Assembly: GCA_013331695.1 (NCBI GenBank) | Contig: DUFX01000036.1 | Location: forward strand, 1-45,577 | Length of the DNA: 45,577 bases | Source: Candidatus Woesearchaeota archaeon | Lineage (GTDB): Archaea > Nanobdellota > Nanobdellia > Woesearchaeales > UBA12501 | Direction of reading: 5' to 3' | In this document: in pieces, positions 3,001-42,899 of the stretch | Numbering within the stretch: position 1 is the first letter of the stretch | How the letters are laid out: every line of letters starts with the position of its first letter | Made by a program: the position numbers and the translations under genes | Notes under the pieces: generated by a model | What the model was told of the DNA's origin: nothing | Seen by the model: only the letters and a program-made list of their open reading frames with translations | The model's database searches: none

Positions 3001-4981
3001 CTGCATCAAACATTGTTCGCAGTTCTTTTTGCAGTTCCGTATGCATACCTTTCTTTCCGGTTTGCAGTCTAAAGCTTTGATCCAGCTGGCTTACATATTC
3101 TTGATTATCCAAATGTTCGAAATCAATGCCGGTGTGATAACGCTGAGGATTTCCTAGTAAATCTTTTCCTTTGAAGACAATACCCACCGCTTTCGTTTTT
3201 CCATTCACAGTTTCCTCATAGCGTCCGATGCCTGATTTTCCAACACCAAGGTACGTTTCTTCTCCTTCCACTCTTGTAAGGATGTCATGATCAAATCCTA
3301 GCTCAGTTCCTTTCACATCCATCAATGCTGCAAGATTCTGCAGGCTTGCTTGAGGAATATCCCCTTTCAGTTTTCCTTCGGTTGCATCATAATAGTATTC
3401 CATGGTCAGAGATGTTCCTAAAATGGTTCTTCCACGAGGAAGATCCATTCCCTCTTCACCTCCCACTTCTTCAAGTTCTAGCTCATCGCGTATTTTTTCC
3501 AGCGCAGCTTCCCTGCCAAAGACCACAACCTGCTTTTGAATCGTCACTGCAGCCTCTGCGGTTTGCTCGCATCCTTCGCACGAAACACTGAACACATCCT
3601 GACCTCTTGTTGTCGGAGGTGTTTTCACCAGTTTCGCATGCTCTTGGGTTGTCTCAGCTGTAACTTGAAGATCTTTATAGACCGCATGCCCCTGCATGGT
3701 GAAGCGTTCGTTTGGATTTTCTTTTGCGTTGTCAGTGGTATAATCAAAAATTGCATCATCTTCTTTTCCTGTGAACACAGGTTTGTCAGGATCAGCACCA
3801 AGAACCAAAGATCCATCCATCTTGTAGTTTCGCACTTCCACTTTTCCCTTTACATAGACATTAATCGAAGCTCCATCGGTTTTAATCCAAACTTCTGCCT
3901 GTTGTTCTTGTGATGCTCCTGGTGGATTTTCTCGGAGTCCTTTCGCAATCTGTTCTGCTTGATCATCTCTCACCGCAGGGGGGGTATGTTGTGATTCGGT
4001 GCTGAATGCATCGAGATGGGTTAAGACAAATTTACCAGCTTCACGAGACTGTCCTTGTGAAATGGTTCCCACACCCGTTCTTTTATCTACAAGGGTTGTT
4101 TCTTTTCCATCAAATCCATACGTGTACACTTCTTTTTTGCCAACGGTCTGAAAGCGTCCATCTACAAAGATCGCATCCGTATTCATCACTGCATTATCTG
4201 CTTTGATATTGCCTTGTGCATCAACACCTAAGATTCCTTCGCGATTTTCAAAGCGCATTTCTTGTCCATCAACCGTCAAGGTTCCGCTGGCTTGTCCTTC
4301 AACAATCATGCTTTCCTGTGTCACAATAACCTTTGCGTCACCGCTTGGCTCGATAATATGCTCTCTTCCCTGTTTATCTTTGACAAACAGCACGTTATCC
4401 TGCATGCGTGTTGCTTCAACGTTGTCGCCTTTCAATGCCAGTGTGTGTTCAGCATCTTCTTTTTTGTATTGGATATGGAATCCATCAGCTACAGCAGTGA
4501 TCCCGATTACTTGGCGATTGTTTTCATAATCCTTCAGATTGATAGGAACTCCTCCTGACGTTAAGGTTTCCTTTGCAGGATCGTAGACGACATTTCCTGC
4601 AGAAGCATCAAACTGATAGTTTGCTTTATAGCGCTGGCTGAAATAAGATTGTGCACCCTCACGTGCTTGCTGAATCATGCCGGGAGTTTGGAAATATTGC
4701 TGGCTTGCTTGCAGATCTCGTCCTGCATTTGAGGGATTGTTGAAGTATCTCAGATCCAGTGCTCCATTTTTTCCAATATTCGCATGATTTTGATAGTAAA
4801 GGGTTGCAAGCTGGTCTGTATATTGCGTGGTTAAGTATCGCTCTTGATCTTCCGGCTTCAAGTTCTTGAAATCTTGTTCGCTGAGATGTTCTCCGGGTTG
4901 TGGTTGTTGATCTTTCTCTTCAAGAGCGAACGTAGAGAACGATAACCCTGCCAACAGCATGCAAACTATTAAAATCCACAT
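2..4981 (-). CDS. giant secreted protein, 3' end beyond the window edge (at least 1660 aa)
   Basis: Absent from the ORF track because it has no stop inside the window. Hand translation of the minus strand from the ATG at 4981-4979 (MWILIVCMLLAGLSFSTFALEEKDQQ..., signal-peptide-like) stays open to position 2. I checked the frame at 4561, at 3061 and at the window start. The plus-strand ORFs at 52-4558 are short, overlapping and L/S/R/C-rich, as expected for antisense shadows. The N-terminal third looks beta-rich, followed by a long A/E/K/Q-rich helical region. No catalytic motif recognised. Confidence 0.75.
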   Translation of the reverse strand, partial: MWILIVCMLLAGLSFSTFALEEKDQQPQPGEHLSEQDFKNLKPEDQERYLTTQYTDQLATLYYQNHANIGKNGALDLRYFNNPSNAGRDLQASQQYFQTPGMIQQAREGAQSYFSQRYKANYQFDASAGNVVYDPAKETLTSGGVPINLKDYENNRQVIGITAVADGFHIQYKKEDAEHTLALKGDNVEATRMQDNVLFVKDKQGREHIIEPSGDAKVIVTQESMIVEGQASGTLTVDGQEMRFENREGILGVDAQGNIKADNAVMNTDAIFVDGRFQTVGKKEVYTYGFDGKETTLVDKRTGVGTISQGQSREAGKFVLTHLDAFSTESQHTPPAVRDDQAEQIAKGLRENPPGASQEQQAEVWIKTDGASINVYVKGKVEVRNYKMDGSLVLGADPDKPVFTGKEDDAIFDYTTDNAKENPNERFTMQGHAVYKDLQVTAETTQEHAKLVKTPPTTRGQDVFSVSCEGCEQTAEAAVTIQKQVVVFGREAALEKIRDELELEEVGGEEGMDLPRGRTILGTSLTMEYYYDATEGKLKGDIPQASLQNLAALMDVKGTELGFDHDILTRVEGEETYLGVGKSGIGRYEETVNGKTKAVGIVFKGKDLLGNPQRYHTGIDFEHLDNQEYVSQLDQSFRLQTGKKGMHTELQKELRTMFDAEAKIGPDGRCLNEACTRAVGASLKLAAEQRTLMQEDLKAQNALYRALAAGARADGKSTKELDRAILRNKKEFDRLAGEVAELTRQDLEEQRLFESQALAAERNQPLEKRPHEELAQIGQDRIKAQRISDDNNVGKNQIMRIKAQIDALTRRNEEEKDVPPWKFAALREKIAQIEAQNAARGEEIIKIQQKYNGDYVVLAKISGDLGKHDDEMLYADRLVQATADDDQANMLRAEATLKQADQRNLDEETRANLVNKALAFANQIQDPVLRAETMKGKQELVDQAIAQATFEKLNEQVREVVHQNSEEALEREYDLLGQLSLYALAKVEGVSWEELDKRYEGMAADEARKLRDAAYATLLLTKKGYSLNQIRTMSREQMRETLGETFGFAGEEERGEQDEINLGDMAQFHSRYLRYDARIAEGHEMNVNELFDRDMRDIDDLILRTHNDPAAAYDKLVELQQKYSPTRGKIADYQRLQQALKEAEDNMMEIGLTPELSWKVSQRTIGKEVGAKGLDLTAPLDFVGLAVKVGAGAVRLARAVDAVEDAVDAVQLARRAEKLGTVEKLVKVATATGDKIRPVTQAIGATVQPVGEALQPLKKGLEVVSRGVESVVDFARKDLAFDGFKPKFADNAGNNLVDARAALVRATREENAAEVERLRQEVLPRMQLIAEAETAYQQQRTGLGGAMRKVEGLGLAGTREQKQKVLQAADDWFVISRTSDDGNEILGAANRLKEAEKEYVKHLDIEAATETYFEKLLQAKLKPGEQLATAKPTLIKQAFEKAQAFAEEVMANLQGQPAFACSVCVITPDGRRVIQDASGNIIDEQKLVQAATDARHTIPEALAQSEPAMGLRVMEEAQQGALGKTPIDPLGNAKGTLASADVRRPATSSLGEAHADMLVQPAPGEPAYARVAEQEEAIREAASRELVQRIVRDEGEEAFRVEIVAKEEVVLPPIAKRPPVEDRVKNNLARIEAEEFVDASGPAREGIAPIQQRLEVWVDR

Positions 4982-5033: not shown

Positions 5034-6119
5034 TTATTCAACATAAAAGATCGCTCGTTCTTGCGTGCTTAATCCTCGCGTGTCGCTCGCTCGAATTACC
5101 ACTGCTTTTCTTCCCTTGATCTGCGGTGTAAAACTGAAGATTCCATCGGGATTGATGGGAATTTCAGGATTGTCGGAAACAAACAGGACTGCATCCCCTT
5201 CTTTATCAAAGGCTTCCAGTTCGTACTCAAATTTTACACCCTTCTTTAACGTAAAATCCTTGAGATTTTTGATGCGAGGTGCCGTGTTGCTTCGTGATTG
5301 TCTTTCACTGATCGTATTTTTTACAGCAAACCAGAAGATGAACGGAGCCTTGTTGTTCAGTTTGGTTTTCTCGTCATAGATTGAGTATGCAGTGCTCTCT
5401 TCATCATACGCAATGATTGAGATTATGACATCATATGCTTTGTTCAAATTCATAAAGTCAGAGAGATGCGATTTCTCAGGTTCAACAGCAATAAGATTGC
5501 TCATTTTTTCTGCAATTTCAAGTATGGTTCCTAATCGAAGCGGAATGGTTTTTGAAAGCGCGCCAAGGAGTTGCTCTCCTTCTTCTGTAATAATTTGCAC
5601 AGGGTAGTTTACCGCAATCGTGACCTCATCTTTTTTAATAAAGGCCTGTGCCCGCGGTTCTTTTTCTTGGATAACGATTCCTTGTGCAGTAAACTCGCCC
5701 CAGTCCGTGCATAAGGGAAGATTCTTTTCAATATAATGTGCGAGTTGTTCCTGCATCTCAACCAGGGGCGGCATGGTCTTCTGGCCTTCGATCACATAAT
5801 ACGGAAGCACACGCTCCTGCGTCAGGAGATTTTTCTCAAACATAGCAGGCTGTTTAAATTCCGCATCGTCATAGAATCTTCCTCCCTGGTGGCCAAACAA
5901 GTACAGCCCTGGAATAAGGATTTGTTCAAGACACTCCTGGACATAGACTTCAACTTGATGTTTGATTTGGTAGTTCTCGCTTTGTTTGTCTTCAACTTGC
6001 GTTTGGTCTGAGAAATAATACCATGCAACACCTACCAAAATCAAGAGGATCAGGCCTAGGATGATAAAGACGGTGACTTGTGCTTTTTTGTTTGCTTGAG
6101 TTTGTTTTGTTTGATTCAT
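5034..6119 (-). CDS. membrane-anchored hypothetical protein with a C-terminal Ig/cadherin-like beta domain
   Basis: 361-aa ORF with an ATG start. N-terminal TM helix (VTVFIILGLILLILVGVAWYYF). The C-terminal ~80 aa (FEYELEAFDKEGDAVLFVSDNPEIPINPDGIFSFTP...RASD) resembles cadherin-like/Ig-like repeats. Its start overlaps the stop of the upstream RHH gene by 4 nt. Confidence 0.7.
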   Translation of the reverse strand: MNQTKQTQANKKAQVTVFIILGLILLILVGVAWYYFSDQTQVEDKQSENYQIKHQVEVYVQECLEQILIPGLYLFGHQGGRFYDDAEFKQPAMFEKNLLTQERVLPYYVIEGQKTMPPLVEMQEQLAHYIEKNLPLCTDWGEFTAQGIVIQEKEPRAQAFIKKDEVTIAVNYPVQIITEEGEQLLGALSKTIPLRLGTILEIAEKMSNLIAVEPEKSHLSDFMNLNKAYDVIISIIAYDEESTAYSIYDEKTKLNNKAPFIFWFAVKNTISERQSRSNTAPRIKNLKDFTLKKGVKFEYELEAFDKEGDAVLFVSDNPEIPINPDGIFSFTPQIKGRKAVVIRASDTRGLSTQERAIFYVE

Positions 6120-6488: not shown

Positions 6489-6773
6489 TCATATGTCACT
6501 GGCGATATCCAACATTTTCTTAATGAAGATCTCTATCTCTTTTAATTTTTCTTTATCTTTATTCAAAGAGATTTGAAGACCATAGGAAGCTGGTTTTGTG
6601 ATAATCCAACCCTCTTTAATCAATTCTTGGCAGATCTTTTTTACATCTTTTCCAAGATGCGAAGGAAATCCACACGTTACGGTGTCGAAGGGTGTGTGCA
6701 CCCCGCCAAGAATCTTCTTTCTGCGAAGATGATACAGAATCGTTGCCTTTATTTTGTCTTCTTCAGTGATCAT
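6489..6773 (-). CDS. small hypothetical protein, possible winged-helix
   Basis: Internal ATG of the 151-aa track ORF (MITEEDKIKATILYHLRRKKILGG...KEGWIITKPASYGLQISLN). An AT-rich TATA-like sequence (rc of ~6797-6808) lies ~25 nt upstream. The longer N-terminal extension overlaps the divergent promoter and looks non-coding. Confidence 0.45.
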   Translation of the reverse strand: MITEEDKIKATILYHLRRKKILGGVHTPFDTVTCGFPSHLGKDVKKICQELIKEGWIITKPASYGLQISLNKDKEKLKEIEIFIKKMLDIASDI

Positions 6774-6842
6774 CAAAGAGGTGAATCCTTGTTCATTTTT
6801 AAATATTCTTATTTTTGAAATATAAAAACATAAAGAGAAACA

Positions 6843-6850
6843 TTTATATA
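6843..6850 (+). promoter_or_regulatory. TATA box (TTTATATA) for the 6874 gene
   Basis: TTTATATA lies 24 nt upstream of the ATG at 6874. Confidence 0.5.
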
Positions 6851-6873
6851 CTTGGTATACGCGATGGACCCTC

Positions 6874-7197
6874 ATGGAACCAGAAACCGTATTCGTCGAA
6901 ATTTTTGGAAAGAATCCATTAATGAGAATACTTGATTTTCTCATTACGTATCAAGCTTTTGACTACCCCCTTACCGAAATAGCCAAAAATGCAGGGGTCA
7001 GTTACTCTACACTTCAAACCTTTTGGGGAAATCTCGAGAAAAATGGTATCGTGATCAAAACACGTCGTGTCGGGAAATCAGATCTCTTTAAATTAAACAC
7101 CAAGAATCCGGCTGTAAAACAGTTAATCAAACTTGATTGGAATCTGATTAAAGGATCTGATGAAGTTGAAGATCGAGAAATCGAACTCGTTCACTAA
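6874..7197 (+). CDS. winged-helix transcriptional regulator
   Basis: 107 aa. ILDFLITYQAFDYPLTEIAKNAGVSYSTLQTFWGNLEKNGIVIKTRRVGKSDLFKLN fits an HTH, a wing and a beta hairpin. Confidence 0.65.
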   Translation: MEPETVFVEIFGKNPLMRILDFLITYQAFDYPLTEIAKNAGVSYSTLQTFWGNLEKNGIVIKTRRVGKSDLFKLNTKNPAVKQLIKLDWNLIKGSDEVEDREIELVH

Positions 7198-22692: not shown

Positions 22693-22974
22693 CTATCGCA
22701 TTTCCTGTACTTTTATGATGTGCCAGCCGAACTGCGTTTTGACAGGCTTGGAAATTTCTCCGGGTTTCAATGAAAATGCCGCTTGTTCAAATTCCTTTGC
22801 CATCTGCCCCCTTCCAAACCAGCCAAGATCTCCACCTTTCTTTTTTGAAGGGCATAATGATTTTTCTTGTGCAATCTGCTCAAACGATTTTCCGTGGGTT
22901 ACATCAAAGCTTGCCACATGCGCTTCTTGTTCTGTCTTGACCAAAATGTGTGATGCATGGACTTGTTTTACCAT
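22693..22974 (-). CDS. parvulin-type peptidyl-prolyl cis-trans isomerase (PpiC)
   Basis: MVKQVHASHILV...GGDLGWFGRGQMAKEFEQAAF...FGWHIIKV. The start is the internal ATG (M26 of the track ORF). Confidence 0.85.
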   Translation of the reverse strand: MVKQVHASHILVKTEQEAHVASFDVTHGKSFEQIAQEKSLCPSKKKGGDLGWFGRGQMAKEFEQAAFSLKPGEISKPVKTQFGWHIIKVQEMR

Positions 22975-23003
22975 CTTTTCATCTCCTGAATTATATAAAA
23001 ATA

Positions 23004-23216
23004 ACGCCGCAGCCCGGATTACCACATAAGAACCTAAGGTTCTTATCATCTCCTACCAGGGGATTTTCTCGCTAACGCTCGAAAATCAGACTACGAAAAA
23101 CTACGCCGCAGCCCGGATTTGAACCCAGGACTTACTCACTTCGCTGCGCTCGTTCGTAGTCTGGCTTCAAATCCTTCGCAGCACGGATTCGAAAAGTCGC
23201 TTGCGTCTTCTCATTA
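23004..23216 (-). other. tRNA-like region: two copies of a T-arm/acceptor 3' end without a detectable matching 5' half
   Basis: ACGCCGCAGCCCGGATT is repeated exactly at 23004-23020 and 23103-23119. On the minus strand the upstream copy reads CTGGG-TTCAAAT-CCGGG-CTGCGGC-G. An 11-bp perfect inverted repeat (23087-23097 / 23153-23163) brackets that copy. A 9-bp hairpin lies at 23026-23046. I could not fold a cloverleaf by eye. Confidence 0.4.
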
Positions 23217-23341
23217 CGCCGCCACTGGGATTTGAACCCAGATATCCTTGCGGAAACAGGATCTTTACGGACCGGCACAGTCATGGGCGGCTGTTGCCTG
23301 CGTTAGCAATCCTGCGCAATACCGGATTATGCGATGGCGGC
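23217..23341 (-). tRNA. tRNA-Ser(GCU) with a ~41-nt intron at the canonical 37/38 position
   Basis: Hand fold: acceptor GCCGCCA/TGGCGGC. D arm GCAT-AATCCGGTA-TTGC. Anticodon stem CAGGA/TCCTG interrupted after TTGCTA (anticodon at 23305-23307, intron ~23263-23303). Long variable arm TTTCCGCAAGGATAT. T arm CTGGG-TTCAAAT-CCCAG. Discriminator G. A TATA box (TTTATAAA, 23378-23385) lies 37-44 nt upstream of the tRNA 5' end. Confidence 0.8.
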
Positions 23342-40811: not shown

Positions 40812-40933
40812 TAGCCCCGCTCGGACACACGTGTAGGGAAGAGACCTCTCGGCTTTTGCCGACCTTCTCTACAATTCGAACCGAGGTCCCAAGACCCAAA
40901 ATCTCGGATGATTGACCGCTACACTACGGGGCT
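40812..40933 (-). tRNA. tRNA-Gln(UUG) with a 49-nt intron at a non-canonical position (T-loop/T-stem junction, ~59-61)
   Basis: Hand fold: acceptor AGCCCCG/CGGGGCT (A1:U72). D arm GTGT-AGCGGTCAA-TCAT. Anticodon arm CGAGA-TTTTGGG-TCTTG. Variable loop GGAC. T stem and loop CTCGG-TTCGAAT. Then 49 nt (40825-40873, forming its own hairpin with TCGGC-AAAA-GCCGA) before the matching CCGAG. Discriminator A. Confidence 0.8.
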
Positions 40934-41058
40934 AAAAGCTTGTAATCAGCCTTTCGGCCTTTCACCAGCTCTAGGGGTGTTGACTTTTCGCTCCTATTTA
41001 AATTTAATCATTAAAGAAGGATCATGGCTCTCTTTCCTTTATTATTTACACAACTACC

Positions 41059-41555: not shown

Positions 41556-42899
41556 CTACGTCTTCTTGGTTTTATTAAGTTTCTGTTTGATCTTGCCTCT
41601 CTTACTTACAGGGTTCACCTGCCCTATCTTCTTCTTTCCACCCATATACTTCTGGAGGGGGGCTGGAATCGCAACACTGCCATCAAGATTCTGGAAATTC
41701 TCCAGAATTGCAGCAAGCAAGCGTGAGGTTGCGACACAGGTTGAGTTGAGGCTGTGTGGGGTAATCTTTGTTCCTTCAGGCCCCAAGTAGCGTATCTTCA
41801 AGCGCCGTGCTTGATAATCCGTGCAGTTGGATGCAGAAACCACTTCCCGATATGCCTGCTGAACCGGCATCCAGCATTCAAGATCATATTTCTTTGCAGC
41901 GATCGTTCCGATGTCTCCTGTGCAGACACTGACTTGCCTGAAATGCAAACCCAGACTTGCGAAAAATTCGATCGCATTCTTGGTTACTTCTTCATGATAC
42001 TTCCACGAATCCTGCGGTTTACAAATAATAATTTGCTCGACTTTGTTGAACTGGTGCCCCCTAAAGATTCCTTTGGTGTCTTTTCCATGTGCTCCTGCTT
42101 CTTTTCGGAAACACGTGCTGATGCCAACGAGTTTGATAGGAAAATCTTCTTCTTTCAAAATTTCGTCCATGAACATGCCGATTAAGGGATGTTCGGATGT
42201 TGCAATCAGATACAAGTCTTCGCCTTCAATCTTGTAAATGGCATCGTTGAAAGTAGCAAGATCGGTAACGCCGTCATACACTTTTTTCATCATCATATAC
42301 GGGGGCTGAAGAAGTGTGTACTCTTTTTTGAGCATGAAGTCAACAGCATAGTGCTGGATCGCAAGTTCGAGCTGCGCAAGTTCTCCTTTAAGGAACCAGA
42401 AGCGGTTGCCTGCAATCTTTGAGGCCCGGTCAAGATCAGCAAACTGTTTTTCCTGCAGAAGATCCACGTGGCTTTTGGGATGGAATCCTTTGGGAAACTT
42501 CGGAGCCTTTCCAAACTTTTTGATGACCTTGTTGTGTTCTTCGGTATCCCCAATCGGAACTGATTCGTGGAGCACATTGGGCAGATGCATCAATTTGTCA
42601 TTGACTTCTTTTTCAAGCACACGAATAAAGTCTTCTTTTTCCTGAACCCTTTTAGGAATTTCAGAAGCTTGTTTGAGGACAGCAGACGCGTCCTTTTTCT
42701 GCTTTTTGAGATCACTGATTTCCTGAGAAAGCTTGTTGCGCATGTGGCGAAGCTCATAGACCTGCTGAACAAGATTCTTCCACTCCGCGTCCTTTCTTCG
42801 TATTTCTTCAATCCAGGCAAGCTTATCCAGCTGATTTCTCTTTTCCAGATCTCTTTTGACCAGATCAGGATGATCGCGGATGAGATTGATGTCGAGCAT
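41556..42899 (-). CDS. serS: seryl-tRNA synthetase (class II) with a Lys-rich C-terminal tail
   Basis: N-terminal coiled-coil tRNA-binding arm. Class II motifs: FRKEAGAHGKDTKGIFRGHQFNKVE and GTIAAKKYDLECWMP...SNCTDYQARRL. The tail is GGKKKIGQVNPVSKRGKIKQKLNKTKKT. Confidence 0.95.
   Translation of the reverse strand: MLDINLIRDHPDLVKRDLEKRNQLDKLAWIEEIRRKDAEWKNLVQQVYELRHMRNKLSQEISDLKKQKKDASAVLKQASEIPKRVQEKEDFIRVLEKEVNDKLMHLPNVLHESVPIGDTEEHNKVIKKFGKAPKFPKGFHPKSHVDLLQEKQFADLDRASKIAGNRFWFLKGELAQLELAIQHYAVDFMLKKEYTLLQPPYMMMKKVYDGVTDLATFNDAIYKIEGEDLYLIATSEHPLIGMFMDEILKEEDFPIKLVGISTCFRKEAGAHGKDTKGIFRGHQFNKVEQIIICKPQDSWKYHEEVTKNAIEFFASLGLHFRQVSVCTGDIGTIAAKKYDLECWMPVQQAYREVVSASNCTDYQARRLKIRYLGPEGTKITPHSLNSTCVATSRLLAAILENFQNLDGSVAIPAPLQKYMGGKKKIGQVNPVSKRGKIKQKLNKTKKT

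Follow-up and report, generated by a model that had tools for sequence, protein, structure and literature searches.

Does the 122-nt minus-strand segment that neighbors a seryl-tRNA synthetase gene encode a working tRNA-Gln(UUG) with an intron in its T arm, and how would such a precursor be spliced? The window, that is, the whole 45,577-nt stretch of DNA analyzed here, carries this segment at 40812–40933, and the neighboring gene (41556–42899, minus strand) encodes a seryl-tRNA synthetase whose nearest matches are in Woesearchaeota MAGs (54–58% identity). A sequence-only reading of the window had proposed a tRNA-Gln(UUG) with a 49-nt T-arm intron, leaving unstated that the locus is on the minus strand. 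When the 49 nt after TTCGAAT were deleted, ARAGORN called the spliced sequence a 73-nt tRNA-Gln(ttg), in agreement with this proposal. In the spliced form the acceptor stem has 7 bp, beginning with A1:T72, the T stem has 5 bp, the T loop reads TTCGAAT and position 73 is A, which also bears out the earlier statement that all cloverleaf elements are present and pair. Archaeal tRNA-Gln typically has A1:U72 as its first pair and A at position 73, and the class I body, the anticodon TTG and the orthologous exons agree with this identity as well. The exons are contiguous and collinear, lying 49 nt apart on one strand, and do not have the arrangement of a split or permuted tRNA. The 5' exon comprises the acceptor 5' strand, the D arm, the anticodon arm, a 4-nt variable loop, the T-stem 5' strand and T54–A59. 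The parts of the gene are as follows; precursor nt k lies at window coordinate 40934 − k.

40812–40933, minus strand: whole pre-tRNA-Gln(UUG) gene, 122 nt; CCA not encoded
40875–40933, minus strand: 5' exon, tRNA positions 1–59, from the acceptor 5' strand through T54–A59
40897–40899, minus strand: anticodon TTG (UUG), Sprinzl positions 34–36, from ARAGORN on the in silico–spliced sequence
40826–40874, minus strand: intron, 49 nt, position 59/60, precursor nt 60–108
40838–40867, minus strand: intron-internal hairpin (GAAGG UCGGC AAAA GCCGA ... UCUUC), in the minimum free energy (MFE) and centroid structures
40812–40825, minus strand: 3' exon, tRNA positions 60–73 (U60, T-stem 3' strand, acceptor 3' strand, A73)
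40820–40824, minus strand: T-stem 3' strand CCGAG, forming with CUCGG (40881–40885) the outer helix h of the bulge-helix-bulge (BHB) motif

The 5' 59–60 nt of the gene were 85–90% identical to intronless tRNA-Gln genes of relatives, including members of other families of the order, and these intronless genes all start with AGCCCC and end with GGGGCT-A. The intron itself had no other copy in a BLAST search against the genome, so there is no sign of its transposition, and it showed no sequence likeness to the genome's other introns. No C/D boxes were seen in it by eye.

The unspliced locus gave no match with ARAGORN in default mode or with the Rfam tRNA model, either at the gathering threshold or at E ≤ 10. 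In the window, ARAGORN called only a tRNA-Met, and the Rfam tRNA model found a tRNA-Met and the intron-containing tRNA-Ser at 23217–23341. Matches to Rfam sno_ZL63, IMES-2 and MESTIT1 near the locus were far under threshold and were set aside. The failure of both tools is explained by the T loop and T stem of the gene serving as the exon strand of the central BHB helix (H) and as the outer helix, respectively. Throughout the genome (1.38 Mb, 93 contigs, 43% G+C, 87% complete), 21 tRNAs were detected with Rfam and 27 with ARAGORN when introns were allowed, 17 of the latter with introns within or close to the anticodon loop; tRNA-Gln is missing from both lists. Both Gln codons, CAA and CAG, are heavily used in this genome. 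Besides the locus described here, the 87%-complete assembly contains no Gln-type tRNA 5' half, and the second, intact tRNA-Gln(UUG) for which the sequence-only reading had allowed was not found there.

Splice site and bulge-helix-bulge motif

Since U occupies both nt 60 and nt 109 of the precursor, the splice point could be placed at either 59/60 or 60/61. We applied the BHB register, in which four exon bases of H are followed by a 3-nt bulge that is cut after its second base, on both strands. Cleavage after the second bulge nucleotide is the established rule for BHB motifs, as in the yeast A-I pair and the archaeal BHB geometry. The register fit at 59/60 alone, with three of the four positions of H paired, 5 bp each in h and in the inner helix h', and AAU and UGU as the bulges. 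This puts the site inside the T loop and not, as had first been proposed, between the T loop and the 3' strand of the T stem. The elements of the motif are as follows.

40877–40880, minus strand: H 5' strand, T-loop U54 U55 C56 G57, pairing with precursor nt 106–103
40828–40831, minus strand: H 3' strand, intron CGUG, precursor nt 103–106
40874–40876, minus strand: 5' bulge A58 A59 / U60; predicted cut after A59, between 40875 and 40874
40825–40827, minus strand: 3' bulge U107 G108 / U109 (= tRNA U60); predicted cut between 40826 and 40825
40869–40873, minus strand: h' 5' strand UGUAG, pairing with CUACA (40832–40836)

Helix H is composed of U54·G106, the mismatch U55·U105, C56-G104 and G57-C103. 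The outer helix h is the T stem (nt 49–53 with nt 110–114), and h' is formed by nt 61–65 with nt 98–102; both are kept in the MFE structure, with pair probabilities of 0.87–0.94. The locus has, in other words, two 3-nt bulges around a four-position helix, together with both of the flanking helices of a strict hBHBh' motif. When the intron was shuffled, an H of at least 3/4 pairs plus an h' of at least 3 bp arose in 1.5% of trials, and an h' of at least 5 bp in 0.2%. The MFE structure of the precursor leaves a 7 × 7 internal loop in place of H, and enforcing the BHB costs +2.7 kcal/mol. In the nearest-neighbor model, C56:G104 and G57:C103 have a pair probability of 0.07, and the central helix of this intron is by this measure thermodynamically marginal. 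Because plain MFE folding omits the BHB, the motif was scored by register and constrained folding. The check at the junctions that the sequence-only reading had proposed thus yielded a BHB motif that can be formed at 59/60 with one U·U mismatch and that is not the MFE structure, and the hairpin ascribed earlier to the intron was recovered in both the MFE and the centroid structure.

The canonical 37/38 intron of the tRNA-Ser(GCU) gene at 23217–23341 follows the same chemistry, in that an exon strand and a 3' segment of the intron build a 4-bp helix between 3-nt bulges. The exon strand of H in that gene is anticodon-loop positions 32–35 and the outer helix is the anticodon stem, whereas in the tRNA-Gln gene T-loop positions 54–57 and the T stem take these roles.

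The 59/60 site in other genes and genomes

Among 40 related genomes, tRNA-Gln genes occur in three states (intronless, with a 37/38 intron or with a 59/60 intron) and share their exons. G004, of the same family, has a 46-nt intron at 59/60 in a CUG gene, and the closed genome G032 has one of 47 nt in a UUG gene; in G029 the 59/60 intron measures 29 nt, and the gene has an additional 37/38 intron. The bodies of these 59/60 introns are unrelated to one another in sequence and follow the same pairing rule; in G032, folding the T arm together with the intron gives a textbook hBHBh' motif as the MFE structure. The patchy spread of tRNA-Gln introns among relatives indicates repeated gain and loss.

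Across 401 genomes of the order, we then looked for Gln bodies carrying an insert of 15–45 nt at 59/60, using the reversed pattern as a control. Fourteen genomes from 12 genera matched, as against none for the reversed pattern; this count is a lower bound, since introns longer than 45 nt, including this one and the other two of the three longest, fall outside the pattern. Overall, of the genomes searched in this order, at least 16 besides the present one have a tRNA-Gln intron at 59/60. Pairing of T54–G57 with the 3' part of the intron is kept in all 15 distinct tRNA-Gln genes of other genomes, ten of which have four of four pairs in H, and the introns nearly always end in YGAA plus 2 nt. Among the 16 tRNA-Gln examples, H is weakest in the intron described here.

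A scan of the genome itself, in which BHB registers were sought, the candidates spliced in silico and the products typed with ARAGORN, revealed at least 10 further tRNA genes with an intron at 59/60, namely Asp(GTC), Lys(TTT), Pro(TGG), Cys(GCA), Ala(GGC) and five tRNA-Ser-like genes. All of them were missed by ARAGORN and the Rfam tRNA model. In total, about 39 tRNA genes were detected here, about half of them intron-bearing. In every gene with a 59/60 intron in this genome, h is the T stem and the exon strand of H is T54–R57, and position 57 covaries with its intron partner (G:C in five cases, A:T in six and a mismatch in three, counting three relatives too). The introns of the first five genes are 28–54 nt long, and several of them have a poor h' or none, giving relaxed, hBH-like motifs. 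The sequence-only reading had called T-arm sites rare; in this lineage they are not, given at least 11 tRNA genes in this genome and tRNA-Gln in at least 16 others. The Asp, Lys, Pro, Cys and Ala genes lie at these loci:

L088 (C58:18070–18347), L089 (C24, about 6548–6672), L090 (C82:22992–23109) and L091 (C66, about 5600–5698)

Complete tRNA sets were reported not to be predictable in Woese- and Pacearchaeota (Kaneta et al. 2018, PMC5829648). Since the tools missed the sole tRNA-Gln and at least 10 more genes with 59/60 introns, a tRNA that appears to be missing from such a DPANN genome can be an annotation artefact.

Several other tRNA genes drew attention during the scan. The ARAGORN call of a tRNA-Pro with a TTTTTTT acceptor stem on C24 was rejected as a mis-splice of what is actually tRNA-Pro(TGG), whose 59/60 intron is 54 nt long. 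The tRNA-Lys(UUU) gene (L088; C58:18070–18225, minus strand) has two introns, at 37/38 (39 nt) and at 59/60 (41 nt); its T loop, TCCAAAT, has C in place of U55 with an intron G opposite, so that H has four of four pairs. Two introns are also present in tRNA-Arg(CCT) (C65:4883–5022, plus strand), a D-loop intron of about 36 nt (around 20/21) and one of 27 nt at the canonical site. Isoacceptor pairs of differing sequence were found for His(GTG) (C10 and C78), Trp (C60 and C64), Leu(GAG) (C10 and C55) and Ser(GCT) (C56 and C62), and such duplicates may reflect a strain mixture or contamination. The Ser(GCT) body on C56 is quite unlike the other Ser tRNAs, and the 3' end of the Leu(GAG) call on C55 is unpaired, so that this gene may hide another T-loop intron.

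Splicing enzymes and competing explanations

The genome has one EndA gene (C82; L062:1474–2088, minus strand), whose product matches PF02778 and PF01974 and contains both the N and the C domain. Its nearest solved relatives are Nanoarchaeum equitans NEQ205 (E 4.5e-36) and the α4 EndA of Methanocaldococcus jannaschii (E 1.4e-33). Residues 41–204 align without gaps with residues 9–171 of the M. jannaschii enzyme (PDB 1A79), including the Y/H/K triad, and there is no insert relative to it: the basic loops associated with broad specificity (CSL/L1, ASL/L2 or NEQ-type/L3) are all absent. The protein is 6 residues shorter than NEQ205 exactly at the specific loop of the latter, defined as residues 90–98 (PMC3488258), and the extra NEQ205 residues are basic. 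No EndA paralog was found with phmmer among the ORFs of at least 60 aa in the genome; a weak match on C74, considered as a β subunit, reads by eye as HTH plus CBS and was discarded. Exactly one PF01974 match was present in 38 of 41 genomes (this one and 40 relatives), including the closed G032, which makes a single-unit EndA the norm of the lineage. The enzyme presumably acts as an α4 homotetramer, judging from its sequence. The EndA type, which the sequence-only reading had suggested identifying, is hence a single-unit α type without known specificity inserts. As minor observations, the gene adjoins (at about 500–1,200 nt) two intron-containing tRNA genes, Arg(TCT) at 22821–22911 and Cys(GCA) at 22992–23109 (L062; C82:21856–23109), and the N terminus of the protein is extended by about 40 aa rich in K and E, with an uncertain start codon.

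For the ligation step, we searched for RtcB (PF01139). It had no match in the 87%-complete assembly, and 19 of 20 relatives encode it, all 13 high-quality genomes among them, so that its absence here is probably due to the incomplete assembly.

On the basis of the observed sequence anatomy, the exon orthology, the recurrent site with its pairing rule and the presence of EndA, this locus is very probably a functional gene for tRNA-Gln(UUG) in a Woesearchaeota-like DPANN archaeon, with a 59/60 BHB intron that is removed by EndA before the exons are ligated. We infer transcription, cleavage and ligation of the precursor from its sequence, and the steps would be as follows. The T stem would act as the outer helix, and the near-invariant U54-U55-C56-G57 would pair near the 3' end of the intron, with the bases that precede its last two, giving a 4-bp central helix that is weakened here by U55·U. 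A58-A59 and the first intron base would make up one 3-nt bulge, the last two intron bases and U60 the other, and the 5-bp intron helix h' would close the motif. A single-unit EndA, predicted to be an α4 homotetramer, would then cut after the second base of each bulge, and an RtcB-type ligase would join A59 to U60, restoring the TTCGAAT loop.

Three other explanations were weighed against this one. The most serious, though still unlikely, is that the locus is a tRNA-Gln pseudogene that has retained a 49-bp insertion, with the working tRNA-Gln in the unassembled 13% of the genome. The completeness of 87%, the weak central helix and the lack of RtcB in the assembly are in its favor. However, the exons carry no disabling change, with fully paired stems that are all kept relative to the intronless orthologs, and the insertion is exactly at the recurrent splice site with both bulges and both flanking helices in place. 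In addition, RtcB is near-universal in relatives, and splicing must operate in this organism given that about half of its approximately 39 tRNA genes bear introns.

Placement of the same intron at 60/61, on the border of the T loop and the 3' strand of the T stem, is very improbable. It would yield the identical spliced product, nt 60 and nt 109 both being U, but only two of the four pairs of H would form (U55·U107 and A58·G104 fail), the outer helix would not adjoin the bulge, and C110 would be forced out of the T stem; moreover, the 59/60 register accommodates all 25 sister introns, each followed by a T. That the locus is no tRNA gene but resembles a cloverleaf by chance, or is a piece of a repeat or mobile element, would agree with the silence of the standard tRNA finders, but this explanation has next to no probability left and is effectively refuted. 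The 5' 59–60 nt match tRNA-Gln genes of other families in the order, the spliced form is called tRNA-Gln, and the intron has no other genomic copy; chance is excluded by the exon identity to relatives, the shuffled-intron rates and the recurrence in many genes and genomes.

The preferred reading, a functional gene with a 59/60 intron, places the locus within a known kind of archaeal intron; the tRNA and the lineage are new, and the enzyme type is a different one. Position 59/60 is listed among the known non-canonical intron sites (Yoshihisa 2014, PMC4090602). The pre-tRNA-Cys(GCA) of ARMAN-2 (Ca. Micrarchaeum acidiphilum) likewise combines a DPANN host with a BHB-type intron at the 59/60 T-loop site, which is cleaved in vitro by the ε2 EndA of ARMAN-2 and barely cut by AFU EndA unless this is given the ASL loop (Fujishima et al. 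2011, PMC3239211; Hirata et al. 2012, PMC3488258). The ARMAN-2 intron has 13 nt and a relaxed hBH motif, whereas the present one has 49 nt, both bulges and both flanking helices and interrupts tRNA-Gln; the three-unit ε2 enzyme needs the ASL loop, whereas the EndA here is of a single-unit α type without an ASL, CSL or NEQ insert. In Thermoproteales and further Crenarchaeota (Marck & Grosjean 2003; Sugahara 2008; Fujishima 2010; review: PMC4090602), introns also occupy ectopic BHB sites including 59/60, with one site recurring in many tRNAs of a genome and a patchy gain and loss among relatives. Their EndA is an (αβ)2 enzyme with a Crenarchaea-specific loop, in contrast to the single EndA gene per genome in this Woesearchaeota-like DPANN lineage. 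Kaneta et al. 2018 (PMC5829648) described α4-type EndA in DPANN lineages and tied tRNA gene disruption to the L3 loop; the present case shares the single-unit enzyme and the many disrupted tRNA genes but has no L3 loop. The inserts so far linked to relaxed or ectopic BHB cleavage (PMC3488258, PMC5829648) are all absent from this EndA, a point against the preferred reading.

A splicing endonuclease with relaxed BHB recognition had been taken to be implied by the T-arm intron. The tRNA-Gln intron does not strictly imply it, since the 3-4-3 geometry and both flanking helices are kept; what remains in favor of the idea is the weak H and the lack of a good h' in several sister introns. We tentatively consider, as a possibility less likely than not, that BHB introns in this DPANN order preferentially land and persist at 59/60, where the near-invariant T54-Ψ55-C56-R57 would supply a ready-made H strand, introns ending in YGAA-NN would fit any tRNA, and weak or h'-less motifs would be processed by an insert-less α4-type EndA. 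If this were true, broad EndA specificity would be possible without the L1, L2 or L3 loops now thought to confer it. The high load of T-loop introns together with a plain single-unit EndA makes this genome a convenient test case for the substrate range of EndA.

Upstream region and tRNA-Ser-like genes

The sequence upstream of tRNA-Gln contains one candidate promoter element.

40995–41002, minus strand: TATA-like box TTTAAATA, 62–69 nt upstream of tRNA-Gln nt 1, read from the sequence

Elsewhere in the genome, tRNA genes are preceded by TTTATAAA-like boxes that lie nearer than that of tRNA-Gln, at about −25 to −40. TTTAAATA may be the tRNA-Gln promoter, which would imply a leader of about 35–40 nt. 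The putative 5' leader region (window 40934–41002, minus strand) contains a small GGCC-GAAA-GGCU hairpin.

The five tRNA-Ser-like genes with 59/60 introns, here termed SerX, have the acceptor, D-, V- and T-arm design of the bona fide tRNA-Ser of the genome. Their loci are:

L134:2508–2630, plus strand
L137:3357–3474 and 3610–3729, minus strand (a pair, C30:6556–6673 and 6809–6928)
L135:2194–2316, plus strand
L136:1511–1630, minus strand

The SerX bodies have a GCCnnnn acceptor, G73, a V arm of 15–18 nt and a 59/60 intron of 31–39 nt. Their 7-nt anticodon loops, TTGAAAC, CCGAAAC, CTGAACA, TTGAGCA and TTGTCAC, give the anticodons GAA (three genes), GAG and GTC in the standard register, and normal tRNA-Ser, Phe, Leu and Asp genes are present besides them. 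As SerRS ignores the anticodon, SerX would mis-decode unless non-translational. Orthologs with identical anticodon loops occur in another genus (G008 and G013), the loci in relatives being L093, L094, L109, L110 and L119, and the SerX neighbors are ordinary housekeeping genes.

Between about −85 and −45, each SerX gene has a same-strand, imperfect copy of its nt 5–41, about 35 nt long (e.g., L134:2423–2465), and such copies are also found at the five loci of the relatives. The copy forms a D-arm-like hairpin, and 12–15 nt around the anticodon loop are 100% identical to the loop of its own gene. A conserved ATATAAA box lies between copy and gene, about 25–32 nt before the latter. Local alignment scores of the upstream copies were 35–48 for the five genes here, compared with at most 26 for the 32 other tRNA genes of this genome, and 40–54 in six of the seven relatives' cases checked, the seventh being a weak case at 30. 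The copy could be an antisense regulator, a leader mimic or a duplication held by gene conversion; the SerX genes and their upstream copies form a conserved family.
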